Shown: positions 30,357 to 59,415 of the stretch, in pieces
Numbering within the stretch: the first letter of the stretch is position 1
Layout: each line of letters opens with the position of its first letter
From: Candidatus Omnitrophota bacterium
Lineage (GTDB): Bacteria > Omnitrophota > Gorgyraeia > Gygaellales > Profunditerraquicolaceae
DNA length: 64,000 nt
NCBI GenBank assembly: GCA_030691865.1
Contig: JAUYDL010000029.1
Span: 4,721 to 68,720 of the forward strand
Direction of reading: 5' to 3'
Translations under genes and position numbers: made by a program
The notes under the pieces: generated by a model
The model's input: only the letters and a program-made list of their open reading frames with translations
Databases searched by the model: none
Told to the model about the DNA's origin: nothing

Positions 30357-30374
30357 TGCACTTATCTAAAACTA

Positions 30375-30416
30375 AAAATAATATACTCTTGAGTGGGTTA
30401 TTTGTCAATAAATATT
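30375..30416 (-). promoter_or_regulatory. Sigma70-like promoter TTGACA-N17-TATATT upstream of the abiEi/abiEii pair.
   Basis: The minus strand reads ATTTATTGACAAATAACCCACTCAAGAGTATATTATTTTTAG. A GGGAGG RBS sits before the start. Confidence 0.35.
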
Positions 30417-30486
30417 GTTGCAGTAATTATCCTTCCAGGACTCTTCTTTACAATAATAACCACAGACGGAATTATCGTTAATTATT

Positions 30487-31176
30487 TTATAGCCTGCCCG
30501 GTGTTCCTCCGTATAAGTCCAAAGTTAAATCTGATTGCCAATATTCCTTAGTATCAACATTCATTATGGTAAGTTTCCCTGACCATCCGGCTCCGGTATC
30601 AATATTCCAAACATTACACACATGAATCGGTTGAAAAGTATTATAAAGTTCAGTTGGTGTATGACCGACAAAGATATCCTTGTATCGGCCCAATTTACAG
30701 TTGCGCCCCTCTGCTTGCATCTTCCACGCCATATCAAGAAGCCTCCTATCCCAAACCAATGTTTGCGCGCTATGACTCGAAAGCGATATGTCCGGATTAA
30801 ACCCGCCATGCACGAAAACCTGATCATCACGCTCAATCCAAAGATGTCCGCTCTTTAGAAAATCGATGTGTGCCTTCGGCATAGGGCCACCGTTATATGA
30901 CGCTATTGTTCGATCACCGCCTTGACTCGTCCATATCTCCGGCTTATCCCCGCGCAAAGCCCAATCCAGAGCCCACATATCATGGTTACCAATAACCAAA
31001 TTGCAGTGTTTAACCTTTAAAAGCTCATCGATGCTTTGCTTGACATCCGGATAACCATCACACACGTCACCTAAAACGATTAAGCGATCTTGCTTGTAAT
31101 CAAATTTCGAGCGTTCAAAACACTGCATTAGCGCCTTGTAAGCGCCATGAATATCACCAATAGCGTATGTCTTCAC
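30487..31176 (-). CDS. Calcineurin-like metallophosphoesterase (PPP-family Ser/Thr phosphatase-like).
   Basis: MKTYAIGDIHGAYKAL...LIVLGDVCDGYPD...VIGNHDMWA. Confidence 0.75.
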   Translation of the reverse strand: MKTYAIGDIHGAYKALMQCFERSKFDYKQDRLIVLGDVCDGYPDVKQSIDELLKVKHCNLVIGNHDMWALDWALRGDKPEIWTSQGGDRTIASYNGGPMPKAHIDFLKSGHLWIERDDQVFVHGGFNPDISLSSHSAQTLVWDRRLLDMAWKMQAEGRNCKLGRYKDIFVGHTPTELYNTFQPIHVCNVWNIDTGAGWSGKLTIMNVDTKEYWQSDLTLDLYGGTPGRL

Positions 31177-31179
31177 TCA

Positions 31180-31971
31180 TCAATCCTTTGCAATGCTTCT
31201 CTTGAGCCTCTTAAATCTATCAAATATGTCTTGGCGCACATCATGGATATATTCATCAGGACCGTTTTCCTGTTCTACCAAAAGACAGCCTCGACTTGAA
31301 ACCCTTTCAAAAAACTTGTTTATATTATCCGGGACGCCCATTAAATACCCTTTTTCTCTGTACTGGGATATTTCCTTCAAAATCAAGTCAATATCAGGCG
31401 CGTACCGCAAGATGAAGTACATATAATACAAATCTTTAGCCTGTTTTTCCTTGTTCTCCCTATCGATAAAAGTCGCTCCCTTGTGATACAAAAAAGCTGA
31501 CGGTTTCGGACAATTAATAAGATAGCCTTTGTTCTTTTTCATAGCGTAAATGTTTATCGATATCCGGTGTTTTAAGAGGAAATCAAATTTGTCGATTTTA
31601 TTTATTTGTATCTGCTGGCCTACCATTTTCTCGATCGCCTTGATATCCGCGGTAGGATAAGTAATAAACTCTACCGGGACTTTTTCTTTATACAGCACAA
31701 CAGGAAACATCCTGTCCATCTTCAGATGACGTTCTTTGTAATCCAAAGAAGAAAGTGTTTCAAAAATTGTCTTTGAATAATCTCCGGTAACGGATTGATC
31801 TACGCCAAAATCTATATCAACCGTAGTCACCGGATTTCTGACGGATGTTTTCCAAATAAAATTTGAATAGATATACGGCATCCATCCACCGACAAGCGTG
31901 AGGTCAGGAAGATAATCACGCATGTCTTCAAGCACGTTAAAAAACACTGCTTCAATTTTTTCAAGATTCAT
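31180..31971 (-). CDS. Pol-beta-fold nucleotidyltransferase, a paralog of the 26169..26849 product (AbiEii/GSU2403-like).
   Basis: LTLVGGWMPYIY...TTVDIDFGV. It overlaps the upstream regulator gene by 11 nt. Confidence 0.5.
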   Translation of the reverse strand: MNLEKIEAVFFNVLEDMRDYLPDLTLVGGWMPYIYSNFIWKTSVRNPVTTVDIDFGVDQSVTGDYSKTIFETLSSLDYKERHLKMDRMFPVVLYKEKVPVEFITYPTADIKAIEKMVGQQIQINKIDKFDFLLKHRISINIYAMKKNKGYLINCPKPSAFLYHKGATFIDRENKEKQAKDLYYMYFILRYAPDIDLILKEISQYREKGYLMGVPDNINKFFERVSSRGCLLVEQENGPDEYIHDVRQDIFDRFKRLKRSIAKD

Positions 31972-32656
31972 ACAAACCCGTCCCCTTCTCTTCTAAAACT
32001 TTTTTCAGATAATCAGCGTGCTCGCGCCCGCGGGGCTTATAATTATAGAGGTCTAAATAAAGCTGCAAATTAGAAACAACCTTATATCCCTTTATTGCCT
32101 GAGCGCCATAAAATACGCTCTTCTTGTAATGCGGGCGAATAATATGAATGTTCCCACCTCTTACAAGCTCCTTTAAATCAAGTTGTTGGCGTAACTCGAG
32201 AACATCCTTTTTCCAGTCTTCAGGTTCCAAATACAGGCATACCTGATCCGTTACTACAAAAGAAGTTACCAAATTGGCGCCAGAATGGAGTGTGAACGCG
32301 TATTGTTTGTCTTTCAGATAATCTTTAAGCTTCGGTAAAATATTTTTATCTGGAGAATAATAGGTATCGACTTCGTTTAATTCAAAGCGGTACTCTGTTA
32401 CCCAATCGCTGATTAGCTCATCTATATTCGTAAGAAGCGCATAGCTATTCGGCCCACGTTTGACCCGCTCGATGTAGCCCTTTTTTGCCATGGTTTCAAG
32501 CGCTCCTTGTGCCAACCCAATGCTCACCCCATTATCTCCTGTAAAGTCGCGCGTAACCCATTTCTTCTGTGGATCAGACAGCATCTTCCTCAAGATAAAA
32601 GTCGCTTTATCAGCAAAAATATTTTTCATATTCGTTGGGTTATTCATAATGTTCAC
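31961..32656 (-). CDS. wHTH regulator, AbiEi-like antitoxin partner of the 31180..31971 nucleotidyltransferase.
   Basis: 231 aa with an N-terminal wHTH-like region (SIGLAQGALETMAKKGYIERVKRG). It is coupled to the NTase gene. Confidence 0.45.
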   Translation of the reverse strand: MNIMNNPTNMKNIFADKATFILRKMLSDPQKKWVTRDFTGDNGVSIGLAQGALETMAKKGYIERVKRGPNSYALLTNIDELISDWVTEYRFELNEVDTYYSPDKNILPKLKDYLKDKQYAFTLHSGANLVTSFVVTDQVCLYLEPEDWKKDVLELRQQLDLKELVRGGNIHIIRPHYKKSVFYGAQAIKGYKVVSNLQLYLDLYNYKPRGREHADYLKKVLEEKGTGLYES

Positions 32657-32710
32657 TCCTTCTTAATGTTCATTGATTAGTAAACAATATATACCCAGTG
32701 AACATTAATG
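32656..32710. promoter_or_regulatory. Three direct repeats of TGAACATTA, spaced about 22 bp apart. The first overlaps the start codon; a putative operator for the 231-aa regulator.
   Basis: The minus strand reads GTGAACATTAATG ... AATGAACATTAAG ... GTGAACATTATG(start). Confidence 0.4.
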
Positions 32711-32736
32711 TCAAACGTTTTTATTACATGCTCTTT

Positions 32737-32804
32737 TCCCCACGGCCCCCAGCGCCGCGCCTCCACCTTCCCGCTCCACCTTCTAAAATAACTTCGTATG
32801 TCAT
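32737..32804 (-). pseudogene. Chimeric gene-fragment scar: a manC 5' end of about 10 codons fused to heptosyltransferase 3'-end-like sequence.
   Basis: The minus strand ATGACATACGAAGTTATTTTAGAAGGTGGAG matches the manC start ATGACATACGCTGTTATTTTAGCCGGTGGAG. The adjoining CCCCACGGCCCCCAGCGCCGCGC matches 33838-33862. Confidence 0.45.
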
Positions 32805-32904
32805 AAAAATTGATTATATCATGCTCAACTCAAAAATCACATATCTAAGCATGAAATCCAACTATCCTTTTTTTTAAGGTCACAATTTGTGACCTTAAAG
32901 ATTC

Positions 32905-33085
32905 TACCTCTCCCCACGGCCCCCAGCGCCACGCGGTTTTGCCCGGCAGGTCATTCCTGAACAACGCCACCACCGGCATCCCCACGACGCAACAGCCAAA
33001 TGCATCGGCCCACTGTCGCAACTCACCAGTACCCTGCACTGCGTAAAAATCTGCGCTAACTCTACTAAAGTAGTCTTATTAAGAT
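32905..33085 (-). pseudogene. Degenerate duplicate, roughly 80% identical, of the 3' end of the GT2-GT9 heptosyltransferase gene.
   Basis: 32911-33010 aligns to 33838-33940. The 64-aa ORF 32845..33039 encodes VALFRNDLPGKTAWRWGPWGE, compared with PVIALFRNDLPGKTAQRWGPWGEG at the C-terminus of the 33751..35355 product. Confidence 0.5.
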
Positions 33086-33150
33086 GATTCTATCTTGATG
33101 ATCGTGACAATTCTGGTTTGGATTATACAAAAAAATACAATCGGGAATAA

Positions 33151-33543
33151 TTATACACTCAGTTCGCGGGGAATAAAGTCTATGCTGAGTCTTGCTCTTA
33201 AGGCCGCGGCAAGCCTCGCAAGGGTTTTGAGATTAATGCGTGCATTTCTTAAATCCTCCAAGCGCGAGATGGTCTGTTGGGTAGTGTTAACTTTTTTTGC
33301 TAATTCTGCCTGGCTTAAATGCCTCATTTGCCTTAGCTGAGTGATCTTGTAGCCTATTTGCAGCCTTGCCACTTCTTCGTCGTAGGCTTTTCTAAACCCA
33401 GGGCTCTTTCTAAGCTCTTCTTCAATATGCTGGTTTATTGTTTTGGGAACTATTATTTTTCTTTTCATAAGAATCACCTCTATAGACTCTTCAACTGGCC
33501 GTTTATTTCTTTCGTCCTCGTAGTATATGGCTTTCTTTTTCAT
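33151..33543 (-). CDS. XRE-family HTH transcriptional regulator.
   Basis: The C-terminus reads ITQLRQMRHLSQAELAKKVNTTQQTISRLE. Confidence 0.65.
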   Translation of the reverse strand: MKKKAIYYEDERNKRPVEESIEVILMKRKIIVPKTINQHIEEELRKSPGFRKAYDEEVARLQIGYKITQLRQMRHLSQAELAKKVNTTQQTISRLEDLRNARINLKTLARLAAALRARLSIDFIPRELSV

Positions 33544-33750: not shown

Positions 33751-35355
33751 CTATATTATTCTTTCTTTAATCCTGCAAAGTACTTCCTCAACGCTTATAT
33801 CCTCTAAATTACTCTTCTCTATAACTATATGCCCCTCTCCCCACGGTCCCCAGCGTTGCGCGGTTTTACCCGGCAAATCATTCCTGAACAACGCTATCAC
33901 CGGAGTCCCCACAGAGGCAGCCAAATGCATCGGCCCGCTATCCCCTGAAACAACTAAACTGCCACGTTTCAATAATGCCGCTAATTCCACTAAACTTGTC
34001 TTATTAATCAAATCTATAGTCCCTAAGGGGACTGTCCCCAAAGGGGACTGTCCCCGATCTTCAACTCTTCCCACAAGCACAACCTTCACTTTCATCTCCT
34101 GTATAATTCTCTGCGCTAATTCGCCAAACCGCTCAATTGGCCACTGTTTAACCGGATCACTGGTAAAAGGATGGATGATTACAATTTTTTGATTAATAAA
34201 ATATTTATATAAATTATCATTTACTTTAATCGCTAGTGACAAATCCTGCGTTTTTGCCCCCAGCAACCCTACCAACTCCAAATTACAATCTACCTCATGC
34301 CGGCTACCTTGATGCTTGGTATCTTTTAATTTATGGGTAAGCAAAAACCCCCATTTCCTATCATAACCCACACGCACAGGGATGCCCGCTAAAAAAATAC
34401 TCTGATGTGCTTCTTTAGTAGGATTTAGGACAACACAGAGATCAAACCTGTGCTTCCTTAATCCTTTCCTGATTTGGTCCCAAACTACTACCTGATCAAC
34501 ACATTCCACCGCAGTCGCCAACTCACTAACTGTAGAATTTACCGCTAAAGTAAGCTCTGCCTGCGGATATCTCTCTTTCAACGCCCGAATAGCCGGAATA
34601 TTCAACAAAAACTCTCCAAACCGGTCATTACGTATGACGAGTATTCTCTTGATCATGGAACACCCCACGGGCAAGCCCGTGGTACCTAAATTTACCCCCT
34701 GACGTATAATAGCTTGCCCATCCAGTGACATCCCCCGAAGCAGTTCTTTCTTCGCATTCATCTGCGAAGGGGGATAGAAAATAGGCACTTCCATTACGCG
34801 CATTTTTTTTCTTAAGGCTTTAGTTAAAATCTCAAACGCAGTATCCGCGCCTTTTAATTCCGGCGCTAAATTTAAAAAACTTTCCCTGCGCATAAGCTGA
34901 CAATGCGTAAACCAGTCATACAACTTAACACCAAATAGAATATTTAATATCAGGGTTGAGAAATAATTTTTAACTTTCGCCAACCCCGAGGTCCCTTGAT
35001 GCATTTTGCTAAAACGTGCACCCAGAACGATATCCGCCCCTGAATCCTTGATCGCCCCCAAAAGCTTAAGATAATTACCAGGGTCATACCTTAAGTCCCC
35101 ATTCTGGATGAGAATAAATTCACCGGTGGCATTCTGTAACCCCGTGCGCACCGCAGCCGCCTTTCCGCGATTACTGACATGGTGGATAACCTTTAAGCTA
35201 TTAAGAGAAAGCCCCCTTAAGATTAACTCAGTATTATCCTTAGAGCAATCGTTAACCACGATAATCTCTTTCTCAACAGAAAGATTGCTAACCTTATTGA
35301 TTACTGCTTCAATAGTTTTCTCTTGATTATAAACCGGCAAAATTACAGAAATCAT
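33751..35355 (-). CDS. Bifunctional fusion of a GT2 glycosyltransferase (N-terminus) and a GT9 heptosyltransferase (C-terminus).
   Basis: The N-terminus reads MISVILPVYNQEKTIEAVINKV...IIVVNDCSKDNT (GT2). From about residue 235 it reads ILVIRNDRFGEFLLNIPAIRALKERYP... (GT9, RfaF/WaaC-like). Confidence 0.7.
   Translation of the reverse strand: MISVILPVYNQEKTIEAVINKVSNLSVEKEIIVVNDCSKDNTELILRGLSLNSLKVIHHVSNRGKAAAVRTGLQNATGEFILIQNGDLRYDPGNYLKLLGAIKDSGADIVLGARFSKMHQGTSGLAKVKNYFSTLILNILFGVKLYDWFTHCQLMRRESFLNLAPELKGADTAFEILTKALRKKMRVMEVPIFYPPSQMNAKKELLRGMSLDGQAIIRQGVNLGTTGLPVGCSMIKRILVIRNDRFGEFLLNIPAIRALKERYPQAELTLAVNSTVSELATAVECVDQVVVWDQIRKGLRKHRFDLCVVLNPTKEAHQSIFLAGIPVRVGYDRKWGFLLTHKLKDTKHQGSRHEVDCNLELVGLLGAKTQDLSLAIKVNDNLYKYFINQKIVIIHPFTSDPVKQWPIERFGELAQRIIQEMKVKVVLVGRVEDRGQSPLGTVPLGTIDLINKTSLVELAALLKRGSLVVSGDSGPMHLAASVGTPVIALFRNDLPGKTAQRWGPWGEGHIVIEKSNLEDISVEEVLCRIKERII
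34027..34055. repeat. In-frame tandem copies of the palindrome GGGGACTGTCCCC, which look like collapsed REP cores.
   Basis: GGGGACTGTCCCCAAAGGGGACTGTCCCC encodes GTVPLGTVPLG inside the GT2-GT9 fusion. Confidence 0.5.
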
Positions 35356-36668: not shown

Positions 36669-37439
36669 TTAATACCCTCTCTTCTCTCTCCTCAAGATAT
36701 TATAATATCCCGATAACTTAGCCCAAAAGCTAAACAACTTATTCGTATCAGAATTGGTTACTTTGATTCTTTTAAGCTCATACACATCGCGGTTAAACTT
36801 AGCAAATCCGCGATTTGTCGTACAGGCGCCTTTATAACCTGCCTGCATAACTAATTTTTTTGCTTTCTCATTAAACCCACCGGAAGGATAACAAAAATAA
36901 TCTACCGGCAGGCCTATTTTCTCTTCAATCGCCTTCTTTGAGCCAGCTATCTCCTCAAACGCAGCCTTTTCATCTTTCACAACCCCAAGATAAAAATGCG
37001 TTTTGGTATGTCCCCCGAAAGCTATATTATCTTTAGACATAGCGATAACCTCATCCCAATTTAAAAATCCTTTTCCTATATAATCAGTTACAAGGAATAT
37101 AGTTGCCGGAAAACCAAACTTTTTCAAAACCGGATATGCATATTGAAAATTATCTTTATATCCATCATCAATAGTAATTACTATCTTGTTCCTTTTAAAA
37201 GACTTTTTATCTTTTATGCTTCTAACTAATTCATCTAAAGTTATGACTTCATAACCATTTTTCTTAATAAACGCCATCTGTTTAATAAAATTCTCAGGTT
37301 TAACAAAAAAACCCCCCTCCCCATACCCAATGCTATGATACACCAAAATAGGTACAGTGTACCTTGGAGTAAACCAAAAAAAATAAAAAGCTCCCAAAAT
37401 AATAATCAAAGAAAATAATGTTAAAAGTAATTTTTTCAT
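36669..37439 (-). CDS. Polysaccharide deacetylase (NodB homology domain).
   Basis: ITIDDGYKDNFQYAYPVLKKFGFPATIFLV, with an N-terminal TM anchor. Confidence 0.75.
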   Translation of the reverse strand: MKKLLLTLFSLIIILGAFYFFWFTPRYTVPILVYHSIGYGEGGFFVKPENFIKQMAFIKKNGYEVITLDELVRSIKDKKSFKRNKIVITIDDGYKDNFQYAYPVLKKFGFPATIFLVTDYIGKGFLNWDEVIAMSKDNIAFGGHTKTHFYLGVVKDEKAAFEEIAGSKKAIEEKIGLPVDYFCYPSGGFNEKAKKLVMQAGYKGACTTNRGFAKFNRDVYELKRIKVTNSDTNKLFSFWAKLSGYYNILRREKRGY

Positions 37440-37457
37440 ATAAATACAAACACTTTA

Positions 37458-39518
37458 CTACAACAAAATCTTATAGATCCGAGCTAACGAGTTACTAAAA
37501 ACTAATTTGAAAGATTCAGCATGTCCAGATGCCCAATCATCTTCTATGGGGAATTTCTTTAAATCATTGGATTCGTTATTTAATTTATGCGGAAGGGCAA
37601 TAAATAAGTAATCCACCTTATCTTTTCTTAGATTATTTAACCAGCTGCCATAATTTTTTTCCTTACGATAAAGGCCATCAGCATAAAAATGCGCCAGCGG
37701 AGGCTTATCATTCACCGAAACATATAACACGCTGTTTTTTAGCTTACTTCCAAAAAATGGATAAAACTCACTGCGTCCAGTATAAGCAATTTTCATTCCA
37801 CTACCGGTATTTTCATTAAGCCATTTCCAAGCGCGGCCAATATCAACCTGCGCTGATTCCTTTCCTTTAAAGGATATCGCATAACGATTAAATTCTTCTC
37901 TGTTGTATTTCTCGTTTAAAATAAATAAAACAACAAAAGTAATAATAACCATCACTAACAACGCCTTTAGTGAAAGTATGTTTCTAAGATTGCGCATTAA
38001 ACTCTTTCTAAAAATAAATGCAATAGCAAATAACAATAAAGCTAACAAAAATGAGAAGATTAATTCATTTCTTTTTGCCAATTCAGCCGCTGAACTAAAT
38101 ATGCAGATAAAACCTAAAAAGGTTAGATATTTTTTACCGTATTTAAATTTATCTAAAAATACTGCCACAGCGATCAACCCTATACCTAAATACGGAAATA
38201 AATACCTTATCCACAGAGCTTTAATGACAAAAAAATACATACAAAACATTATTAACGGCAGCATAAATAACAAAATATATTCAATACTATAATTAAACTT
38301 GCGCTTAAAGAATGTGGCCACGATAAAGGGTATTATGGTCCCTGGAATAACAAAAGCAATAAACTGTAAACCCAGCCCTTCGCTAAAAAACATATCCTTA
38401 ACGCTAAACTGTTCCCAAGGAATAAATAGCCTGCTAAAACCGGCTTTATCGATAATCCCAGGGAAGATTGTCCTGCCAAACAATGATACCGAAACCGGAT
38501 ACAATGGATTCCCCGTAAGAATAAATGTTCTAAAGTAGCTAAATGATCCAAAAATAAAAAACGTAGCCGCAACAACAGAAAGAACAAAAAATAAACTTCT
38601 ATAATTTTCTTTCTTGGCATTGCTGATTATAAAATAGGCAGCTAAAGGCAACAATGTAACTGACCAAAAAACATTTAAAATCTTGGTTCCAACAAATATC
38701 CCTAATGTAACCCCTAAAATAAGAGCGTTTTTGTAATTGAATTTCTTGTTCAAAATTAATAAATAATTTAAAACCATCAAAAATAAAGCAGCGCACATAA
38801 CATCAATCTGCGTGCCATTCCTGATTTGCTTAAACACATTAGGTATAATGGCCCATAAAAAACTAACCAACAAAGCCGTGTTGTTTTTTAGAGAGTACTT
38901 TCTTAATATTGAATATATAGCCAATATGCCCAATAGATAAAATACAGCCTGCCCGACATCAGCGATAAAAGCATTTTTAAGCGGAAGCATCCACCAAAAA
39001 AACAATAGCTCAGCATTCATAGGATAGTAGGTTAAAGCGGTCAAATCTGCTGAGATTGGCCAAGCACCAAAAACAGAGATCGGATTTATAAGGTTACCGT
39101 TCTTTAACCAAAAGGCAGGAAAACTAAGATGATACTGATGGCTCTCCGGGCAAATCGGAGGATTAATAAGATTGACCCAAAGCTTTATAATAAAAAAACC
39201 CAAAAATATCGCTATTGCTAAAAGCAATATCTTATTTTCAAATATAAAATTTACCTTAGGTATTTTAAATTCAAAACGCGGTTTTCTCCGAGTAAATAGA
39301 TACACTATTAAAAACACCGTTAAATGTAAAAAAATAACATTTGGTAGATAAAGTATCTGCGAGAGTCCCAAAAATAATTCTACAATAATAACCTGGGCAA
39401 AAAAAAGTGTAAACCACGAAAGACAAAAATCCGCCAACGTCTGTTGTAAAAATAAAATAGAACTAAAATAATAAGAACTCAATCCCACTAAAGCATTAAG
39501 TAAAATAAATACTACCAT
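37458..39518 (-). CDS. Large polytopic membrane protein, a putative GT-C-fold glycosyltransferase (ArnT/PMT/YfhO-like).
   Basis: 686 aa with many transmembrane helices. It lies adjacent to a polyprenyl-phosphate-type GT2 gene. Confidence 0.4.
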   Translation of the reverse strand: MVVFILLNALVGLSSYYFSSILFLQQTLADFCLSWFTLFFAQVIIVELFLGLSQILYLPNVIFLHLTVFLIVYLFTRRKPRFEFKIPKVNFIFENKILLLAIAIFLGFFIIKLWVNLINPPICPESHQYHLSFPAFWLKNGNLINPISVFGAWPISADLTALTYYPMNAELLFFWWMLPLKNAFIADVGQAVFYLLGILAIYSILRKYSLKNNTALLVSFLWAIIPNVFKQIRNGTQIDVMCAALFLMVLNYLLILNKKFNYKNALILGVTLGIFVGTKILNVFWSVTLLPLAAYFIISNAKKENYRSLFFVLSVVAATFFIFGSFSYFRTFILTGNPLYPVSVSLFGRTIFPGIIDKAGFSRLFIPWEQFSVKDMFFSEGLGLQFIAFVIPGTIIPFIVATFFKRKFNYSIEYILLFMLPLIMFCMYFFVIKALWIRYLFPYLGIGLIAVAVFLDKFKYGKKYLTFLGFICIFSSAAELAKRNELIFSFLLALLLFAIAFIFRKSLMRNLRNILSLKALLVMVIITFVVLFILNEKYNREEFNRYAISFKGKESAQVDIGRAWKWLNENTGSGMKIAYTGRSEFYPFFGSKLKNSVLYVSVNDKPPLAHFYADGLYRKEKNYGSWLNNLRKDKVDYLFIALPHKLNNESNDLKKFPIEDDWASGHAESFKLVFSNSLARIYKILL

Positions 39519-39522
39519 CGCC

Positions 39523-41049
39523 TTACCTTTCCTCTCTAAGCCATATTCTTTTTACTGATCGAAGATTTTCTAACCAACCATTATAGCGTTTAAATAAGAT
39601 TAAGCGCAACATTTTTATGGCCGTCCTAGCGGAAGATATAAAATTATTTGAAAATTTTGATGCCCCCATGATTCTAGCATGATAAGGAACGGGCACCTCA
39701 ATAACCCGTTGCCAGGCATTAAGCAATTCAATGATCATTTCCGGAGAAAATTCAGGGCCTTTTCCGGTTAAAGAACCAGATATTTTCTTATATGATTCCT
39801 GCCAAATACAACGAAAGGTACAACCCACATCCGTAAAACGTGATTTACGATTCCACCAAAGCAAGGTAATTATACCTCCAAAAAGAATATTTCCCATTCT
39901 TTGAAAAAAAGGCATATTCGCGCCATATTCAATATATTGCCAATAGGTCCTGGTGCCAATAACCGCATCCGCATTTTTTATATACAAAAGCAATTTTTCA
40001 AGATCTTCCGCTCGAAATGTACCATCGGCCTCAACTACAACTAGTATATCCGCATCAGAACGATCCAAACCTTTCTTTATCGCGTCACCATAGCCATTGA
40101 GCGGCTCAGAATAAACTAATGCTCCTGCCCTTCTAGCCTTTGCCGCAGTACCATCGGCAGAATTATTATCCATAACAATGACCTGCCTGCAAACAGGTAA
40201 AAAATTCTTAACCACATATTCTATTGACTCCACTTCATTCCAAGCCGGAATAATTACATCGATTGTAAAACTATTCCAGCGTTTTTGGCGAATAGACCTT
40301 TTCATCTTATATACATCACTACGATTATTTATATTCACATATCCGCCATAAAATTCATGTCCAATAATCGGTCCACATCCTTGGGCAGATACAAGATTAA
40401 AAAGATTGATAAAATTAATTACACTAGCGCTAGCAATATTTTCTTTAGCTAATTCCGCCAGCCGGCTTTTTGCGCAAATAAATCCTAGCCCAAAATAAAC
40501 CGAAGTTATGCTCGCCGGTTTTTCTTTCACCTGTTTAACTATTTTAGTATTTTCATCAAAATCTACTGAATAATTATTAAAATATTCATCTGGAAAATCA
40601 TACTTCTTCAATCCACAACATATAGAAAAGTCAATAGAGCTTTGCACAAATTTTGCAAAAGGCAGATGATCTTCTCCTCCATAATACTCATCACCCAACA
40701 CCGAAACAAACATCTCATCTTTATTCAAGTATGGGACTATGGCAGCGTAACCAGCAATTAAACCTTTCGCTATCTGATTATCCGCTATAGTAATAAATTC
40801 GATCCTAGATTTTAACCCTTTAATTTTACTTAAAACATCGCGTATCATTTCAGAGTTGTAACCAACTAAAACATACAACGTCTCAAGATTAAACGCATTA
40901 TCCAAGAGCCTTACATTTCTAACAATAAGCGGCTCATTATCTACAACCAGCATAGTTTTTGAAATTTTCTTACTATAAGGCAGAAAACGTGTTCCTCTGC
41001 CCGCAGCCATAATAAAACCCTTACTTATTTTTCTTATATTTTCAAGCAT
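39523..41049 (-). CDS. Fusion of a sugar-1-phosphate nucleotidyltransferase (N-terminus) and a GT2 polyprenyl-phosphate glycosyltransferase (C-terminus).
   Basis: The N-terminus reads MAAGRGTRFLPYSKKISKTML (NTP_transferase). From about residue 255 it reads FTIDVIIPAWNEVESIEYV...VIVMDNNSADGT (GT2, ArnC/DPM1-like). Confidence 0.7.
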   Translation of the reverse strand: MLENIRKISKGFIMAAGRGTRFLPYSKKISKTMLVVDNEPLIVRNVRLLDNAFNLETLYVLVGYNSEMIRDVLSKIKGLKSRIEFITIADNQIAKGLIAGYAAIVPYLNKDEMFVSVLGDEYYGGEDHLPFAKFVQSSIDFSICCGLKKYDFPDEYFNNYSVDFDENTKIVKQVKEKPASITSVYFGLGFICAKSRLAELAKENIASASVINFINLFNLVSAQGCGPIIGHEFYGGYVNINNRSDVYKMKRSIRQKRWNSFTIDVIIPAWNEVESIEYVVKNFLPVCRQVIVMDNNSADGTAAKARRAGALVYSEPLNGYGDAIKKGLDRSDADILVVVEADGTFRAEDLEKLLLYIKNADAVIGTRTYWQYIEYGANMPFFQRMGNILFGGIITLLWWNRKSRFTDVGCTFRCIWQESYKKISGSLTGKGPEFSPEMIIELLNAWQRVIEVPVPYHARIMGASKFSNNFISSARTAIKMLRLILFKRYNGWLENLRSVKRIWLREER

Positions 41050-41050
41050 A

Positions 41051-42451
41051 TTATCTAAAGAATGAAATTATTTTTTGTAAAATAATACTAGCATGAGATA
41101 TTGTCCTTATATTTCTAAGATTATGTAAAATTATTTTTGGTCTCAAATAAAATCTTAAAAAAAACCAACGATACCAATAACGTAACTGCTTATCAGTTAG
41201 TTTCGGCGGAATATAAGAAAAGTTCCCATATTGCATCTTATTAGAAATAATATCTTTTTCGCTAATTTCTCCACTAGCAATTAATCTATCTGTAATCGGA
41301 GTGCCCGGTAAAGGAATAAATCTAGTTAAGCTTATCCTGACTAAAGGTAGAGACGAAACAAACTTTATAGTCCTACGCAATGTTGCTAAGGTCTCCAGCG
41401 GATAACCCACCATAACAAAACCAATTATATCAATTCCATGTGCATAGATAAGTTTTATTTTTTCTGTTATCATCTCTAAGCTTATCCCCTTGCCGATATC
41501 TTTTAATATTTCAGGATCCCCGGATTCAATCCCCACCGCAACTTCATAGCAACCGGATTCTTTCATAGCGACAAGTAACTTTTCATCTAAAGTATCTAAC
41601 CGCAGCCCATTAGGACAGGTCCATAATAAATCCAAACGCCGTTTAATCAATTCATTAGCAAACTCTAAAGCCGCACTGTTAGGAAAAGTAAAATTATCAT
41701 CTATAACCTGAAATTCCCTAAGACCGTACTTATTCTTTAGATATTCTAATTCATCAACCACGCTAACCGGATCTCTTCTCCTGACCTTGTAACCGGTAAT
41801 ATTCCTGCTCCCGCAAAAAGAACAACGATACGGACAGCCCCGCGATATCATAATTGGCAATACCGGCAACCTTCTATAAAAAAATCCATGTACTGCATTA
41901 CCATATAGCCGAGGATTAAGTTCATCCCAATCCGGCGAGCCGATAGCATCAAGATCCTCAACATACTCATGATGAGATACTAATATCTCATCATTTTCTC
42001 TCCAGGCAAGATTAGGAATTTGCTCTAATGAGCTTTTATCCATCCTCCCGCTATTAAACAACTCCAGAAGCCTTACAACTGCCACCTCCCCTTCTCCGAC
42101 AACCAGGAAATTAACTTCTTTTAGCAAATTAAATACAGATTTAGGATTTGAAGAAGGCGCCGGCCCGCCAATAATTATCGGAATATCCAAAGACTCTTTT
42201 CGCACTGCCCGGACATATTCTTTAATTTTCCCCAGGTCCATGTCAAAAGCCTGAAAACCTATAAATCTGTAATCCTTAATTAATATATGCTTAAATAATT
42301 CTTCCGGCAAAACTCCTAAAACATTACAATCAAAAATACGTACAGTAAAACCATTCTTTTTAACGTAATTAGCGATAAACCCTAATCCTAATGGCGGAGT
42401 GTATTGAAGATTATAGCTGCTCAAAGGTTTAATTAATAATAAATCGTACAT
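41051..42451 (-). CDS. Cobalamin-binding (class B) radical SAM enzyme.
   Basis: An N-terminal B12-binding-like domain, then CPYRCSFCGS (CxxxCxxC). Confidence 0.75.
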   Translation of the reverse strand: MYDLLLIKPLSSYNLQYTPPLGLGFIANYVKKNGFTVRIFDCNVLGVLPEELFKHILIKDYRFIGFQAFDMDLGKIKEYVRAVRKESLDIPIIIGGPAPSSNPKSVFNLLKEVNFLVVGEGEVAVVRLLELFNSGRMDKSSLEQIPNLAWRENDEILVSHHEYVEDLDAIGSPDWDELNPRLYGNAVHGFFYRRLPVLPIMISRGCPYRCSFCGSRNITGYKVRRRDPVSVVDELEYLKNKYGLREFQVIDDNFTFPNSAALEFANELIKRRLDLLWTCPNGLRLDTLDEKLLVAMKESGCYEVAVGIESGDPEILKDIGKGISLEMITEKIKLIYAHGIDIIGFVMVGYPLETLATLRRTIKFVSSLPLVRISLTRFIPLPGTPITDRLIASGEISEKDIISNKMQYGNFSYIPPKLTDKQLRYWYRWFFLRFYLRPKIILHNLRNIRTISHASIILQKIISFFR

Positions 42452-42452
42452 G

Positions 42453-43850
42453 CTAATACCGTTTAAGAAATAAATTGAATGATCTTTTAACCTTGTTCAA
42501 TGTTTTTGCCAGCCTCTTGCTTCCCAAAACCTTCTTCTGGACTAATGCAACCGGAATTAAATCCCAAAAATATTTAACGGTATAAGAGATTTTAATTCCG
42601 CAATGATTCACTAACTTTCGCCATCTATTTAAAGTCTTCATACTATGTTCTCTAGTATAATAATAGACATCTCCACTTTTAACCCAGATCTTGGCATCAA
42701 ATTTATTTTCCTTAATTAAATCGGAATAAACTTTGGTTCCCGGAAGCACATAAAGCATCGAAGCCCCCGCTCCATGCGTTGACCTTATGTTAGCATTGGC
42801 GTAATCCACTGTTTCTTTTATCGTTGCCTCGGTTTCACCGGGAGTCCCCACACAGAAAAATGCCGAAGTAGTCATCTTGTCCGTAAACTTAGCGCAGATA
42901 TCAAAAGCGGTTTTAACCAATTCCCGGGTAATCTTTTTATTTATTTTACCAAGTATATTCTCGGATAAAGTTTCTACTCCCCAGGTTATATGCCTACATC
43001 CTGAATCCGCCAATTTAGCCACCATCTCTTCATTCACCGGAGTAACTCTACAGGAAATCGCATATTCTATATCTAGTTTTTTTAACACCTCTGTAATCTT
43101 AATCGTCCTATCTATTCCCAGATTAAATGTATCATCGTGAAAAAAAATACGCTTTGCCCCCATTCTTTTCACATATTCCACTTCCTGAGCTATTCTTTCA
43201 GGGGAATTCATCCGCACGTTTTGCCCCCAAAAAGATGAGGTGGAACAAAACGAGCAGTTGACCGGACAGCCCCGCGAAGTTATTAAGTATGCGAGCTTCT
43301 TTTGCCTAATTTCTTCTGCAGCGTAAGAATAATCCGGTAAAGCTAATTCATCTAGATCCTTAACCAGTCCAAAAACTCTGTTGGATAAAAAACCCTTATC
43401 CTTATCTTTGTATACTAAACCACTAATAGTTGATAGGTCCCCGCCTTGCTTGAGAGCCTGGCAAAGCCCAGGCAATGACCTCTCTCCTTCAGACTGAATT
43501 ATAAAATCTAAATCATGGTAAAAATATTTAAAAGTCTGTTCATAAAGAGTAGCCGGATGAACTCCGCCCAGCACAACCAAGATCTTCCTATCTATTTTCT
43601 TTATTTGTCTTAATAGCTTAAACGCGCCCCAACGGTTAAAAGAATTAAATGATATCCCGACCAAATCCGGCTTTTTAGTCCTAACTGTAGATAAAAATAA
43701 CCTAATACTCGGATTAAATTCTTTTCCATTATAATTATAAATATCGACTTCATGCTGCTTATTTAAGGAAGCTGAAAGATACCCTAGGCCCAAAGGATAA
43801 CCTTTTAAATTTAACTCTGAAGTTGGAGGATAAACCAGGGCTATTTTCAT
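42453..43850 (-). CDS. Cobalamin-binding (class B) radical SAM enzyme.
   Basis: An N-terminal B12-binding-like domain, then CPVNCSFCST. Confidence 0.75.
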   Translation of the reverse strand: MKIALVYPPTSELNLKGYPLGLGYLSASLNKQHEVDIYNYNGKEFNPSIRLFLSTVRTKKPDLVGISFNSFNRWGAFKLLRQIKKIDRKILVVLGGVHPATLYEQTFKYFYHDLDFIIQSEGERSLPGLCQALKQGGDLSTISGLVYKDKDKGFLSNRVFGLVKDLDELALPDYSYAAEEIRQKKLAYLITSRGCPVNCSFCSTSSFWGQNVRMNSPERIAQEVEYVKRMGAKRIFFHDDTFNLGIDRTIKITEVLKKLDIEYAISCRVTPVNEEMVAKLADSGCRHITWGVETLSENILGKINKKITRELVKTAFDICAKFTDKMTTSAFFCVGTPGETEATIKETVDYANANIRSTHGAGASMLYVLPGTKVYSDLIKENKFDAKIWVKSGDVYYYTREHSMKTLNRWRKLVNHCGIKISYTVKYFWDLIPVALVQKKVLGSKRLAKTLNKVKRSFNLFLKRY

Positions 43851-44578: not shown

Positions 44579-45278
44579 TTTTTCCTAACCAAAATTTTAC
44601 CTTTAATATCGTCCACAGCGCGGGAATCATATCCGTGGCCTTAACCGTTTTACCTTCTTTATGTGTCCGGGGCTTGTAATAGACAGGAATCTCCCCGGTT
44701 TTATATCCACCCTTGCAAAGTTTACTTACCAACTCAAATGCAAAAGCCTGGCTACTAGCCTTACAGTTAAGTTTCTTTAAAACATTGATTTTAATTAAGT
44801 TTGTGCCGATAATATCAGTAAAATGTTTTCCGTACAACAGATTTATGAAAAATGTTGCGATAATCGTCCCCAGCCAAAAAGGCCTTTCTTTGATCAATTC
44901 TATGTTTGAGGTATTCACCCTACCTAAAAGGCGTGAACCAAAAACAACATCCAGGCCTTCATTTTCCATTTTATCTATCATTTTTAAGGCATCTTCCATC
45001 TTGTATTCCAGATCCGCACCAGGCCCATAAACATAATCGCCTTGCGCCAGGCATATTCCTTCCCAGCCCGAATATCCGGCACCCATATTTTTAGAGTGGA
45101 GAATTATTTTAAGCGTTTTGTCATCCTTTAAACCATCCAATATTTCTTTTGTACCGTCAGTTGAGCAGTTATCTATAACAATTATTTCCTTATCAATCTT
45201 TAATACCTTAGCTTCTTGGATGGCTTTTAAGATTGTCAGTTTTTCATTAAAGCAACCTATAATAATTGTCAGTTTCAT
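44571..45278 (-). CDS. GT2 glycosyltransferase (DPM1/GtrB-like).
   Basis: MKLTIIIGCFNEKLTILKAI...IIVIDNCSTDGT. Confidence 0.7.
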   Translation of the reverse strand: MKLTIIIGCFNEKLTILKAIQEAKVLKIDKEIIVIDNCSTDGTKEILDGLKDDKTLKIILHSKNMGAGYSGWEGICLAQGDYVYGPGADLEYKMEDALKMIDKMENEGLDVVFGSRLLGRVNTSNIELIKERPFWLGTIIATFFINLLYGKHFTDIIGTNLIKINVLKKLNCKASSQAFAFELVSKLCKGGYKTGEIPVYYKPRTHKEGKTVKATDMIPALWTILKVKFWLGKNA

Positions 45279-46585
45279 ATTGTCATTCTGAAAAAATTAT
45301 GTAAAATCCTCTCTACATAAGATAACATTGGCTTGGTAAGCCCCGGATAAACTCCTATCCAAAACAGATTATTCATAACTAAATCGGTGTTTTTTAAATT
45401 TCCTAACACTCGATGTTTTATATTTTTATAAGCCGGCTGCTTAAGTAAGTTCCCTCCAAATAACATTCTGGTGACAATCTTATTACTTTCAAGATAATTA
45501 ACAATCTCTGCCCTTTTAAACGGCACATTTTCCTTAACCAGAATAGGAAAACCAAACCAGCTTGGATCAGAATACATCTGCGCCTGTGGCAGTATAAAAT
45601 AATCGTTATATTTCTCAAAAATTTTATATAAGAATTTAAAGTTTCTTTTCCTTGCGTCAATAAAACCGGGTAGTTTTTCCAGTTGCGCGCAGCCGATAGC
45701 CGCCTGCATATCGGTAACCTTTAAGTTATATCCAATATGCGAATACACATACTTATGGTCATAGCTATAGGGCAAATCGCCAAACTTTTGCTTAAATCTC
45801 ATTTTACAAGTATCATCATGCCCCGGTTCACACCAACAATCTCTCCCCCAATCACGAAAAGACATTATTATCCTTCTTAATAACGGATTATTAGTTAAAA
45901 CCGCTCCGCCCTCTCCCATGGTCAAATGGTGAGGTGGGTAGAAACTACAAGTAGAGATATCACCAAATGTTCCAGTATATCTACCCTTATATTTGGATCC
46001 AAGACTATCGCAATTATCCTCAAGCCACCATAATTTATGTTTCTTTACTATCTGATTAATCTTATTAATATTTACCGGATTCCCCAACGTGTGCGCCGTA
46101 AAAATCGCCTTTGACTTTTTAGTAATCGCTTTTTCTATTTTTTCTGCCTGTATATTATATGTTCCCATCTCTACATCAATGAATACGGGCACAAGGTTAT
46201 TCTGTAGAATCGGATTAAGCGTTGTCGGAAAACCGCAAGCAGTAGTAATTACTTCATCTCCGGGTTTTAATTGCCTTTCCTTTAACAGCGGCGAAGTCAA
46301 TGCGGAAATTGCTAATAGGTTTGCCGATGAGCCTGAATTTGTAAGTAAACAAGATTTAACGCCTAAGAAACTTCCAAGCTTCTCCTCAAACATAGCAGCG
46401 TATCTTCCTGCAGTTAGCCAAAAATCAAGAGATGCATCAACTAAATTTATTAATTCCCTGGAATCATAAACTCTGCCGGCATAATTAATTGTATTTTCAC
46501 CAGAAATAAATTTTTTTTCTTTCGCTTCGGATTTATACAGCTTTTCAATTAATTTAAATATCTTTTTTCTGATTTTATTTTTCAT
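45275..46585 (-). CDS. DegT-family PLP/PMP-dependent enzyme, RfbH/DdhC-like (CDP-6-deoxy-4-keto-hexose 3-dehydrase type).
   Basis: 436 aa, with length and N-terminal region (GENTINYAGRVYDSRELINLVDASLDFWLTAGRY) typical of RfbH/E1. It sits in a CDP-sugar context with rfbF/rfbG-like genes. Confidence 0.7.
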   Translation of the reverse strand: MKNKIRKKIFKLIEKLYKSEAKEKKFISGENTINYAGRVYDSRELINLVDASLDFWLTAGRYAAMFEEKLGSFLGVKSCLLTNSGSSANLLAISALTSPLLKERQLKPGDEVITTACGFPTTLNPILQNNLVPVFIDVEMGTYNIQAEKIEKAITKKSKAIFTAHTLGNPVNINKINQIVKKHKLWWLEDNCDSLGSKYKGRYTGTFGDISTCSFYPPHHLTMGEGGAVLTNNPLLRRIIMSFRDWGRDCWCEPGHDDTCKMRFKQKFGDLPYSYDHKYVYSHIGYNLKVTDMQAAIGCAQLEKLPGFIDARKRNFKFLYKIFEKYNDYFILPQAQMYSDPSWFGFPILVKENVPFKRAEIVNYLESNKIVTRMLFGGNLLKQPAYKNIKHRVLGNLKNTDLVMNNLFWIGVYPGLTKPMLSYVERILHNFFRMTI

Positions 46586-47656
46586 TTAATCAATAAAGTC
46601 CTCTTTTGTAAACACCTCAGAATAAAGCACTGGAAGTGGTTTACCGTATATTTTCTTAATTTCATAATCATTAATAAATTTTCTGTCCTCCGCAATAAGA
46701 CAGGTATCAATATAATTTTTAAAGTATTTAATCTTCATCCCCCGTTGAATAATATCTTTTAACGACTCTTCAAAGAAGTTCCCCAATGAAACATGAATAT
46801 ACGGACATGGCATAACATCACCATATTTTGTGATAGATACCATTCTTTTTACCGCTATGCAACCCAAATTAAGGCCATACGCTGGAGTTAGATGTGTGAA
46901 TACATTATATTTTTTTTCCAGTTCGCGCATATACTCCATATCATCTTTACTAATAAGGACATTGTAATTCCCTTCCCATGCCCCGACAGGTTTGGCGTAT
47001 GTTACAAATACCCCCACTCCTTTTTTCTTCGCAAATTCCAGGAATTCAATAAATTCCTGCGACCTAACCCTTTGTTTGGTAACTACAGTCGCCAATATGA
47101 TATTTAGTCCTGCATCCAGACATGCATCGATTGCTTTTATCGCTCTTTCATGCGAACCGGCTTTACGCCTGAATTCATCGTGCTCAGTTGCAGAAAGGCT
47201 GTCCAGGCTTAGTTGAATCTTATCTAACCCTATATTCTTTAAATGTTTTGCTTTTTTAGCATCTAAAAACCATCCATTAGTGTCTGAGGTTATATAAAAC
47301 TTCTGCGGGTCAATCGCCTTGACTATATCATCAAAATCAGGAAAAACTAATGGCTCCCCGCCAGTAATTACAATATGCGCTAAGCCCATTTCGTCAGCTT
47401 GCCGCGAAAGCTCCTTTACATCCTTAATCGTAAAGAACCTGCTCCCGTTTTTACCCCGCAGCTTAGTTATATCGCAATGCTGACAGGCAAAATTACATGT
47501 ATAGTCGTATTGAAATTGTAATATAGCTACACTTTCTCCCCGCTTGATTTTTTCATCATATTTCATAATCTTCTCATAAACATACGGCTTTTCTTTTTTC
47601 AGAAGTTTTCTTTTTTCGTTTTCTTCCGGTTTTAATTGCCCTTGTTGAGCCATCAT
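46586..47656 (-). CDS. Radical SAM enzyme (CxxxCxxC), possibly with a twitch/SPASM-like C-terminus.
   Basis: YDYTCNFACQHCD, with additional C-terminal cysteines. Confidence 0.7.
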   Translation of the reverse strand: MMAQQGQLKPEENEKRKLLKKEKPYVYEKIMKYDEKIKRGESVAILQFQYDYTCNFACQHCDITKLRGKNGSRFFTIKDVKELSRQADEMGLAHIVITGGEPLVFPDFDDIVKAIDPQKFYITSDTNGWFLDAKKAKHLKNIGLDKIQLSLDSLSATEHDEFRRKAGSHERAIKAIDACLDAGLNIILATVVTKQRVRSQEFIEFLEFAKKKGVGVFVTYAKPVGAWEGNYNVLISKDDMEYMRELEKKYNVFTHLTPAYGLNLGCIAVKRMVSITKYGDVMPCPYIHVSLGNFFEESLKDIIQRGMKIKYFKNYIDTCLIAEDRKFINDYEIKKIYGKPLPVLYSEVFTKEDFID

Positions 47657-47660
47657 GATA

Positions 47661-49334
47661 TCAATCTCCTAAGCTAAACGAAAGACTAAACATCTCTGCA
47701 TATTTACGCCAAAAAGGTTTTTCTGTTATAATTGCCTTTGCGGTATCCATGTATTGTCGCGCTTTTTCCAGATTACCAAGTTTCTCGTAGCATTCTGCGG
47801 CATAGTAATATGCGATAGCATGGTCGCTTTTCGCTCTTATTGCATTCTCAAATCCTTTCAATGCCATTTCGTAATTTCCCAGGCGGAAGTCGCTGTTATA
47901 TACAAAATTAAGCTCCAAATTTAAGATATATGCCATTTCCTGTATATATTCAGCGGTAAAATCTTCGGTTTCGACAACCGCTTTTTTATAATTGGTATCA
48001 GTAATCCGGCCTTTAAAATAATTTTTTTTAAGGCAGATATCGTACATTTCACTTCCTACAAGAGGAGTGGCAACATTAATTCTAAACCAGTTTGCATAGA
48101 TAGTTTTCAAAAAAATTCTTGAATCCTCAATATCCTGTTTTGTTTCACCAGGCAACCCGATTAAAATATTAACATCAGAATATATTCCAACTTCACGGCA
48201 ATCGTTAATTACACCTTTAATTATAGAAAGGTTAAGCGGTTTGTGCATTATTTCCTTTAAAACCCTTTTGCTTCCTGACTCAACCGACAAAACAAGCTGA
48301 TTAACGCCTACCCTTTTAAAAGCTTCAAGCATTCCCCTGTCAAGAACATAAAGAGCCAATGAATTTGGAAAAAAAGCTGTTAACTGCAATTCCTTAAGTA
48401 TATCAATGATTTCATAAACCCTTTGTTTATCCGCCATTAAGTGATCATCCTGAAAAATAATTGTCTTCGTACTGTATTGGTCTCTAAGGCGTTTAAAATC
48501 CTCTTTGATTCTGGGTAGGCTATAATAACGCATCTTTTTGCCGTGTACCGTGTGTGATGAACAAAAACAACAATTAAAAACACAACCTCTAGAAGTCATC
48601 GCAACTAAATTTTGCTTTTTTCCGGTGACAGAAAGGTAAGCTGCTATTGTTGGGTTTGTTCGATAATCGTCTATTTCCAAAATGTCAAAATCATAAAAAG
48701 GAATTTCATCAAGGTCTTCTATATAATCATGCCTGAATGACTCCTTGTTTTCAGTTTTTCTCCGCGTAATCCACGATGGATTTTCTTCAAGGTACTGCAA
48801 TTTATCATCGGCTTTGACAAGGCCTAACAAAGGCTTTTCGCCTTCACCGTAGCAAAGGGTATCAAAACATATACTATCTCTAAAAATTTCATTATACATA
48901 TTTGTTGGCACACCGCCACCGGCAACTATCATAGCATTCGGAAATATACCGCGGCAGCACTGCGCAATATCCAGCATACTTTGATATAACGGAGTAAATA
49001 ATGCGGATATCCCTACTATGCTCGGGGCATAATCAACCCACGTTGGCGATGAAAGAAATCCTTGGAAAAAACCAGCAAAAGAAGAAAATTCGAAGCTTTT
49101 TATTTTATTTAAAACACAGTTAAAATCAATAAGTTTCGCTTGGGTTTCAGTATACTTTTTCAGATACGCACTCAAAGATATTATACCTAAAGGCATGTCT
49201 GTAATTACAGCTCCGAAGGTACCTGATTTCTTTGACACTGCTTTTACATTGTAAGGGGGATTGACAAAATCGTCATAATTAATATTCGGCGGGACTATAA
49301 ACAATATTCTATCCATATATTGCCTTATCAACAA
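47661..49334 (-). CDS. Cobalamin-binding radical SAM enzyme with a C-terminal TPR-like region.
   Basis: A B12-binding-like N-terminus, CVFNCCFCSS, and C-terminal TPR-like repeats. Confidence 0.7.
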   Translation of the reverse strand: MLIRQYMDRILFIVPPNINYDDFVNPPYNVKAVSKKSGTFGAVITDMPLGIISLSAYLKKYTETQAKLIDFNCVLNKIKSFEFSSFAGFFQGFLSSPTWVDYAPSIVGISALFTPLYQSMLDIAQCCRGIFPNAMIVAGGGVPTNMYNEIFRDSICFDTLCYGEGEKPLLGLVKADDKLQYLEENPSWITRRKTENKESFRHDYIEDLDEIPFYDFDILEIDDYRTNPTIAAYLSVTGKKQNLVAMTSRGCVFNCCFCSSHTVHGKKMRYYSLPRIKEDFKRLRDQYSTKTIIFQDDHLMADKQRVYEIIDILKELQLTAFFPNSLALYVLDRGMLEAFKRVGVNQLVLSVESGSKRVLKEIMHKPLNLSIIKGVINDCREVGIYSDVNILIGLPGETKQDIEDSRIFLKTIYANWFRINVATPLVGSEMYDICLKKNYFKGRITDTNYKKAVVETEDFTAEYIQEMAYILNLELNFVYNSDFRLGNYEMALKGFENAIRAKSDHAIAYYYAAECYEKLGNLEKARQYMDTAKAIITEKPFWRKYAEMFSLSFSLGD

Positions 49335-49342
49335 TCATAATA

Positions 49343-50479: not shown

Positions 50480-50488
50480 AAAATACTC

Positions 50489-52870: not shown

Positions 52871-52873
52871 GCC

Positions 52874-56123: not shown

Positions 56124-56136
56124 TAATCAATGGCCT

Positions 56137-57672: not shown

Positions 57673-57685
57673 CTCTTCTTAAATA

Positions 57686-59406: not shown

Positions 59407-59415
59407 TACTCCTGC

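Follow-up and report, generated by a model that had tools for sequence, protein, structure and literature searches.

A sugar-1-phosphate nucleotidyltransferase-GT2 fusion beside a GT-C fold protein as the probable core of a Gtr/Arn-type glycosylation line in an Omnitrophota bacterium

Omnitrophota are an uncultured phylum of ultra-small cells. A 64,000-nt stretch of contig JAUYDL010000029.1 from a Candidatus Omnitrophota bacterium (hereafter the window) carries two adjacent genes, one for a 508-aa protein that joins a sugar-1-phosphate nucleotidyltransferase domain to a glycosyltransferase family 2 (GT2) domain, and one for a 686-aa polytopic membrane protein. The locus raises the question of whether these two proteins cooperate to activate a sugar, load it onto a polyprenyl phosphate, and transfer it on the periplasmic face, as a sequence-only reading of the window had proposed. 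Our analysis makes it fairly probable that a Gtr/Arn-type extracytoplasmic glycosylation line has its core in these two genes.

Both open reading frames (ORFs) on which that reading was built are present in the ORF listing (Table 1). They are co-directional and tightly packed, with a 4-nt gap between them, and the genes around them are spaced by 1-18 nt within a dense string of minus-strand genes that runs from approximately 33.7 kb to the window end at 64 kb. The 686-aa protein had 94 full-length homologues and the 508-aa protein at least 193, indicating that neither ORF is spurious or the product of misassembly. Database entries identical or nearly identical to both come from a Candidatus Omnitrophota metagenome-assembled genome.

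The N-terminal half of the 508-aa protein matched Pfam NTP_transferase (PF00483) over aa 10-190 with 47.3 bits against a cutoff of 21.2, and NTP_transf_3 also matched. The GRGTRFLP-type motif claimed for this protein was indeed found (...AAGRGTRFLPYS); the G-x-G-T-R...K signature is present as AAGRGTRF...SKKISK, together with conserved acidic and EKP residues. In an alignment of 38 fusion family sequences (35-82% identity), the residues G17, R21, K31, D120, E121, E176, K177, and N239 were invariant in this half, and they presumably play the roles of their counterparts in RmlA and GlmU. The domain has the expected nucleotidyltransferase fold, and the family profile matched RmlA at 1.9e-24. The top-ranking NCBIfam families were archaeal GlmU, RmlA, and AglF, all far under their equivalog cutoffs, and the NCBIfam comparison gave no membership in the RmlA, GalU, GlmU, MurU, or RfbF equivalogs (Arch_glmU, 51.9 against 292; rmlA, 36.5 against 361). 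The NCBI version of the fusion, labelled 'glycosyltransferase', is 495 aa long and starts at M14 (window 41010-41049, minus strand). The 508-aa start is preferable because residues 10-15 form the first beta-strand in the model and the consensus of the family conserves positions 11 and 13; judging from this model, the deposited start is probably too short, and the longer one would restore the first beta-strand of the Rossmann-like fold.

The C-terminal half matched Pfam Glycos_transf_2 (PF00535) over aa 265-375 with 60.1 bits against a cutoff of 23.3, so that both halves of the proposed fusion are recognised above cutoff. Invariant residues in this half of the alignment were D299, E340-A341-D342 (an E-x-D variant of the D-x-D motif), R367, D407, and R448. 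The highest NCBIfam scores were obtained with AglJ (96 bits), PpgS (65), and a dolichyl phosphate (Dol-P) hexose transferase (61). The best solved relatives were Pyrococcus furiosus DPMS and ArnC, each matched across the whole catalytic domain (family profile, 4.5e-18 and 2.7e-13, respectively), in agreement with the ArnC/DPM1-like assignment made earlier. The match scores of the 508-aa protein were 24.6 for RmlA (N-terminal domain), 22.4 for DPMS (the best GT2 match, 24% identity), 19.4 for ArnC, about 19 for MpgS, MGS, and GpgS, 16.2 for GtrB, and about 16 for hyaluronan synthases. DPMS and ArnC therefore outscored the hyaluronan synthases, which argues against a processive synthase, an outcome that would have spoken against the sequence-only reading of this domain. 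Judged by its best matches, the fusion GT2 domain is of the DPM1/ArnC kind.

The 686-aa protein, named 'glycosyltransferase family 39 protein' by NCBI, showed approximately 13 hydrophobic segments in a crude hydropathy scan. Its AlphaFold model, made with 54 homologues (predicted local distance difference test, 91.6; predicted template modelling score, 0.93), has a soluble alpha/beta region at aa ~550-686, and the protein carries three extra N-terminal helices. No Pfam or NCBIfam family matched it, and neither phmmer nor a 54-sequence profile found a match in the PDB. Because PF13231 and PF02366, two of the families suggested for checking, gave no match here (PF00483 and PF00535 had recognised the 508-aa protein), the GT-C assignment is drawn from fold comparison and from homologues. 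The first 38 Foldseek matches in the PDB were all GT-C enzymes; ArnT was the best (1.2e-5), followed by STT3, AglB, DPY19, ALG9, EmbB, PglB, Pmt4, AftA, and PimE. Transporters appeared only at a probability of 0.1 or less, which argues against a transporter, a match that would have spoken against the sequence-only reading of this protein. Twelve of the 54 homologues matched PMT_2 at E-values up to 1, all at residues ~190-320, and the PMT_2 gathering score (26.1) was passed by P0032 (29.5), P0067 (29.8), and P0086 (26.8), of which P0067 also passed PMT. Position 125, within the motif NPPxxx(D/E)SxxYH, is acidic in 53 of the 54 members (D in 48, E in 5); in the window it is E125, just after helix 96-118, and the positive-inside rule would place it on the periplasmic side, where the first large extracytoplasmic loop begins. 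D239, K279, and N337 are invariant. In hhalign comparisons with two PMT_2 proteins, which were weak (probability 1%), the PMT_2-matching region was aligned, with D239 opposite a conserved SD. The modelled fold and the homologues support a GT-C fold glycosyltransferase that is GT39/GT83-like and belongs to the PMT_2 clan. Among sources naming an organism, Omnitrophota alone yielded members of the family, which for the most part escapes detection by hidden Markov model (HMM) libraries.

The gene context of the GT-C family was then compared in 50 metagenome loci, obtained in a search seeded with 17 closer sequences; context ORFs were labelled by BLASTP against the window proteins, supplemented by Pfam. 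The copies fell into a closer clade of 45 (41% identity or more) and a distant clade of 11 (33-37% identity). Immediately upstream on the same strand, the closer clade had a stand-alone GT2 in 22 of 45 cases, plus one (L123) recognised by Pfam, the NTP::GT2 fusion in two (L086 and L122), a GtrA_DPMS_TM protein in two (L098 and L102; 69-70 bits), and a UbiA-family prenyl-phosphate enzyme in one (L116). In the distant clade, the GT2 lay immediately downstream in 8 of 11 cases. Counting either adjacent side by BLAST labels, a GT2 was present in 27/45 closer and 8/11 distant copies, again with L123 added by Pfam. Twelve of the neighbouring GT2s are ~310 aa long with two C-terminal transmembrane (TM) helices, which is the GtrB/ArnC architecture; the remainder are DPM1-like proteins of 230-250 aa. 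Since the gene at this upstream position is usually a small GT2, the window fusion stands where a Gtr/Arn-type system would have its donor synthase. An apparent unfused form of the 508-aa protein, consisting of separate GT2 (~234 aa) and NTP_transferase (~219-235 aa) genes next to GT-C paralogues (P0031 locus, L002), was considered and rejected by BLASTP: the NTP gene is an orthologue of the RfbF-like gene of the window (45%), and the GT2 shares merely 23% identity with the fusion GT2 domain.

In the mechanism that we propose, the N-terminal domain, with its intact motifs and fold, would condense a sugar-1-phosphate with a nucleoside triphosphate to give a nucleoside diphosphate (NDP)-sugar. 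The GT2 domain, judging from its closest relatives and gene context, would then move the sugar onto undecaprenyl (polyprenyl) monophosphate at the membrane surface, where amphipathic helices would hold it. After flipping by a flippase presumably encoded elsewhere, the lipid-linked sugar would serve as the donor for the 686-aa protein, whose predicted fold fits such a role and which would probably use the conserved acidic position 125 and the invariant D239. The gene content of the surrounding cluster suggests a periplasmic glycoconjugate as the acceptor, most likely the lipopolysaccharide (LPS) core or O-polysaccharide. The products of the upstream B12-binding radical S-adenosylmethionine (SAM) gene and the downstream deacetylase gene would probably modify the sugar, either ahead of its transfer or afterwards.

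Several results weigh against this mechanism. The GT2 domain scored below all named equivalog cutoffs (AglJ, 96 against 325; PpgS, 65 against 370; ArnC, 19.5 against 529), and the window 686-aa protein matched no GT-C HMM. A hydropathy scan found no hydrophobic segment or TM anchor in the fusion, unlike GtrB, ArnC, and archaeal DPMS; its model contains only amphipathic helices, at aa 381-397 and, at the C-terminus, a long one at aa 470-507. The C-terminal anchors comprise two TM helices in GtrB and ArnC and four in archaeal DPMS, and human DPM1, a member of the same class, is also devoid of TM helices. The GtrA-like flippase that the sequence-only reading suggested looking for was not found: no GtrA, Wzx, or SMR-type flippase was detected in the window among annotated ORFs of at least 150 aa and small non-overlapping ORFs. 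The proposal of a Gtr-type module thus holds for the conserved GT2/GT-C adjacency and fails for a flippase gene within the window. The sole small ORF of multi-TM type (11684-11998), with two hydrophobic segments, adjoins a triose-phosphate isomerase gene; by its size and position we tentatively read it as SecG-like. Finally, most GT-C homologues pair with GT2s of other subtypes and the window holds a second candidate GT2, so that the donor pairing is not unique.

This second enzyme, a small DPM1-like protein (GT2_235) whose best NCBIfam matches were AglJ and PpgS, is the basis of the rival that survives best. Tied to the RfbH/CDP-dideoxyhexose pathway (CDP, cytidine diphosphate), it could make the real donor of the GT-C enzyme, with the fusion merely co-located and either serving another transferase or priming an undecaprenyl phosphate (Und-P)-linked oligosaccharide. 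At several loci (for example, L100, L108, L111, L112, and L117), a GT2_235 orthologue (63-82% identity) is encoded between RfbH and the GT-C gene, and this arrangement includes several loci without the fusion. Among the GT-C homologues with a context examined, the closest, P0015 (54%), has no called NTP_transferase-GT2 fusion within 7 kb. It is also known from lactococci that Und-P-monosaccharides can be elongated prior to GT-C transfer (PMC10821137). In contrast, three loci (the window, L086, and L122) have the fusion directly upstream of a GT-C gene, in the usual position of the partner GT2; stand-alone GT2s nearest to the fusion's GT2 domain fill the same slot in L088, L091, L104, L110, and L119; and the two GT-C paralogues of L086 each have their own adjacent GT2. 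We therefore consider it unlikely that GT2_235 replaces the fusion in this role, and possible that it acts as an alternative or additional donor synthase.

A less probable explanation, to which we give little credence, is that the fusion glycosylates a soluble phospho- or carboxy-acceptor, as MpgS and GpgS do, or another lipid, and works as a two-step synthase in its own right, with no relation to the GT-C protein. The MpgS and GpgS scores given above are close to that of ArnC, but the top sequence and fold matches are polyprenyl phosphate enzymes, and the GpgS profile match is limited to the nucleotide-binding half (aa 253-334) whereas that of ArnC spans aa 253-460. By comparison, the helix at aa 381-397 and the C-terminal helix appear typical of membrane-surface GT2s, and adjacency to a GT-C gene recurs in the window, L086, L122, and L010. 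It is very unlikely that the 686-aa protein is instead an oligosaccharyltransferase- or polymerase-like GT-C moving undecaprenyl diphosphate-linked glycans en bloc to protein or glycan, as the Foldseek matches to STT3, AglB, and PglB might suggest, because the WWD[YWF]G motif of oligosaccharyltransferases occurs in 0/54 members, the homologues match PMT_2/PMT and not STT3, and the neighbouring Und-P-type GT2s, GtrA, and UbiA mark monophosphate donors.

The proposed glycosylation line can be compared with known systems. The passages of PMC10821137 that cite Mann & Whitfield 2016 describe three-component periplasmic glycosylation as an Und-P-sugar synthase, a flippase, and a GT-C enzyme, exemplified by GtrA/GtrB/GtrC O-antigen glucosylation and its Gram-positive equivalents CsbB/GtcA/YfhO and GacI/J/K/L. 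As in the Gtr systems, the window has a DPM1-like GT2 gene beside a polytopic GT-C gene, and related GT-C loci carry GtrB-architecture GT2s and GtrA-domain proteins. In contrast to them, the window GT2 is fused to a nucleotidyltransferase and devoid of TM helices, the GT-C comes from a divergent family, and a GtrA/Wzx gene is missing from the window. The trio of GT2 (ArnC being its second-best structural match), GT-C (ArnT being its best Foldseek match), and PF01522 deacetylase-family protein recalls ArnC/ArnD/ArnT. The Arn lipid A aminoarabinose pathway has analogues in LgmA/B/C and FlmF2/NaxD/FlmK. We considered an Arn-orthologue reading, prompted by the PF01522 neighbour, in which deacetylation would yield an Und-P-aminosugar; it was ruled out by the ArnC equivalog score and by the lack of ArnA, ArnB, ArnE, and ArnF equivalents beside the window genes. 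The window deacetylase also differs from the Arn system in its signal-anchor and in being linked as often to a Wzy_C gene as to the GT-C gene. Compared with DPMS plus PMT and with archaeal AglD-AglS, the fusion has none of the four anchoring TM helices of DPMS; PMTs carry MIR domains and a loop-1 DE motif where the window family has D/E-S-x-x-Y-H, and the C-terminal domain of the window GT-C is AglB-like. By analogy, a function like that of the Gtr, Arn, CsbB-YfhO, and GacI-L systems is supported, with membership in no named equivalog. The nucleotidyltransferase fusion, the anchorless GT2, the conserved B12-radical SAM partner, and the HMM-elusive GT-C family are distinctive.

If the biochemistry holds, the fusion would be a 'Rosetta stone' tying sugar activation to lipid-carrier loading, and a one-protein route from sugar-1-phosphate to Und-P-sugar would be potentially useful in glycoengineering. 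It would also aid the annotation of hundreds of similar fusions in Desulfobacterota, Planctomycetota, Pelagibacter, and others, and would place an Omnitrophota GT-C family missed by standard HMMs in the periplasmic glycan-decoration machinery. No new mechanistic category is opened, and the line would be a modest variation on a known type of system. The literature searched, of which coverage was incomplete, contained no characterised fusion of a nucleotidyltransferase with a polyprenyl phosphate GT2; this is absence of evidence only.

Table 1. Positions of the two main proteins, their domains, and neighbouring features in the window
Feature	Position	Strand	Remarks
508-aa fusion ORF	39523..41049	-	ORF listing
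N-terminal sugar-1-phosphate nucleotidyltransferase domain, aa 1-255	40285..41049	-	
C-terminal DPM1/ArnC-like GT2 domain, aa 256-508	39523..40284	-	without TM helix
686-aa GT-C ORF	37458..39518	-	ORF listing
Membrane domain, aa 1-549	37872..39518	-	~13 TM helices
C-terminal soluble alpha/beta domain, aa 550-686	37458..37871	-	predicted periplasmic
B12-binding radical SAM enzyme, 466 aa	41051..42451	-	PF02310 + PF04055; 1 nt upstream of fusion
Polysaccharide deacetylase, 256 aa, N-terminal signal-anchor	36669..37439	-	PF01522, 86.1 bits; 18 nt downstream of GT-C gene
Second small DPM1-like GT2 (GT2_235), 235 aa	44571..45278	-	PF00535, 83.5 bits; adjoins RfbH
GT2::GT9 fusion (heptosyltransferase-like)	33751-35355	-	second fusion in operon
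RfbH	45275-46585	-	718 bits, above cutoff
SPASM radical SAM enzyme	46586-47656	-	
B12-radical SAM-tetratricopeptide repeat protein	47661-49334	-	
TylC3-like C-methyltransferase	49343-50479	-	
793-aa protein, ~13 TM helices flanking spermine-synthase-like domain	50489-52870	-	PF01564, 25 bits
Reductase	52874-53749	-	
YerE-like thiamine pyrophosphate enzyme	53746-55545	-	
511-aa protein, NeuB-like (sialic/nonulosonic acid synthase family) with C-terminal cupin fusion	56137-57672	-	within sugar cluster
4,6-dehydratase-like short-chain dehydrogenase/reductase	58423-59406	-	
RfbF-like NTP-transferase	59416-60192	-	

In Omnitrophota, the fusion has a conserved partner in the B12-binding radical SAM enzyme. 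The gene directly upstream of the fusion encodes an orthologue of this enzyme in L086 (84% identity), L122 (65%), and L087 (71%), and the order B12-radical SAM (466 aa), fusion, GT-C is kept in L086 (84%, 82%, and 44% identity, respectively) and L122. A dedicated line in which an NDP-sugar made by the N-terminal domain of the fusion is C-methylated by this enzyme, captured on undecaprenyl phosphate by the fused GT2 domain, and installed as a rare sugar on the Omnitrophota envelope by the GT-C protein without a classical GtrA flippase is conceivable, the methylation step being modelled on Fom3, which acts on a cytidylylated substrate; we regard this line as a whole as quite improbable. A radical SAM gene (window 41051-43850 region) adjoins the fusion in all four Omnitrophota loci examined (the window, L086, L087, and L122), and one is also found beside the fusion in one Oligoflexia and one Pelagibacter locus (L011 and L005). 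Such a recurrent neighbour suggests that radical chemistry may modify the sugar on which the fusion acts.

On the other side of the pair, the nearest NCBIfam families of the deacetylase were PgaB and IcaB, and its signal-anchor suggests that the enzyme is periplasmic. Approximately 11 related loci have an orthologue (64-71% identity) in the corresponding gene block, and the association of the deacetylase with the Wzy_C gene is at least as strong as that with the GT-C gene.

The fusion itself occurs widely in sequence databases. Homologues were found in Desulfatibacillum and other deltaproteobacterial metagenome-assembled genomes (MAGs), Binatia, Aminicenantales, Oligoflexia, Halieaceae, Electrothrix, Planctomycetota, Pelagibacter, and Xanthobacteraceae. 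In one deltaproteobacterial MAG (L010), a bona fide PMT_2 protein (67.6 bits) is encoded immediately ahead of the fusion homologue, and the fusion homologues of L003, L004, and L009 adjoin large polytopic proteins without Pfam matches; some of the homologues outside Omnitrophota have no obvious partner gene. Across phyla (L003-L018 compared with the window), identity was 41-54% in the GT2 half and 23-33% in the nucleotidyltransferase half. A planctomycetotal locus (L016) has a stand-alone GT2 of the fusion subtype followed by a separate NTP_transferase gene. In the Pelagibacter locus (L005, 4947-6956), the fusion homologue divergently adjoins a FAD_binding_4 gene and a short-chain dehydrogenase gene, a pair resembling DprE1/DprE2, the epimerase pair acting on a polyprenyl phosphate sugar, and a 561-aa protein with 11 TM helices is encoded nearby.

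The surrounding cluster also holds GT9 heptosyltransferases, ManC, two Wzy_C/ligase-like proteins, methyltransferases, and four radical SAM enzymes, three of which are of the B12 type. The minus-strand region at 45275-60192 resembles a pathway that would yield a CDP-3,6-dideoxyhexose, branched or methylated, of the yersiniose-like kind. In L003 (1-2594), a Desulfatibacillum-type contig, a relative of the 793-aa protein in this region (27% identity) is encoded three genes ahead of the fusion homologue, and two 13-14-TM proteins without Pfam matches are encoded between them.

The two halves of the GT2::GT9 protein occur as separate adjacent genes (186 and 314 aa) in L001 (11854-13351)/L128 and in other loci. 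Two AbiEi/AbiEii-type toxin-antitoxin pairs, a metallophosphoesterase, and a helix-turn-helix-like ORF, recognised by eye, interrupt the polysaccharide region at 28721-33543. Within this interval, a 64-aa ORF (32845-33039, minus strand) repeats the C-terminal GT9 sequence of the GT2::GT9 protein (…ALFRNDLPGKTAxRWGPWGE…) and looks like the remnant of an insertion or duplication.

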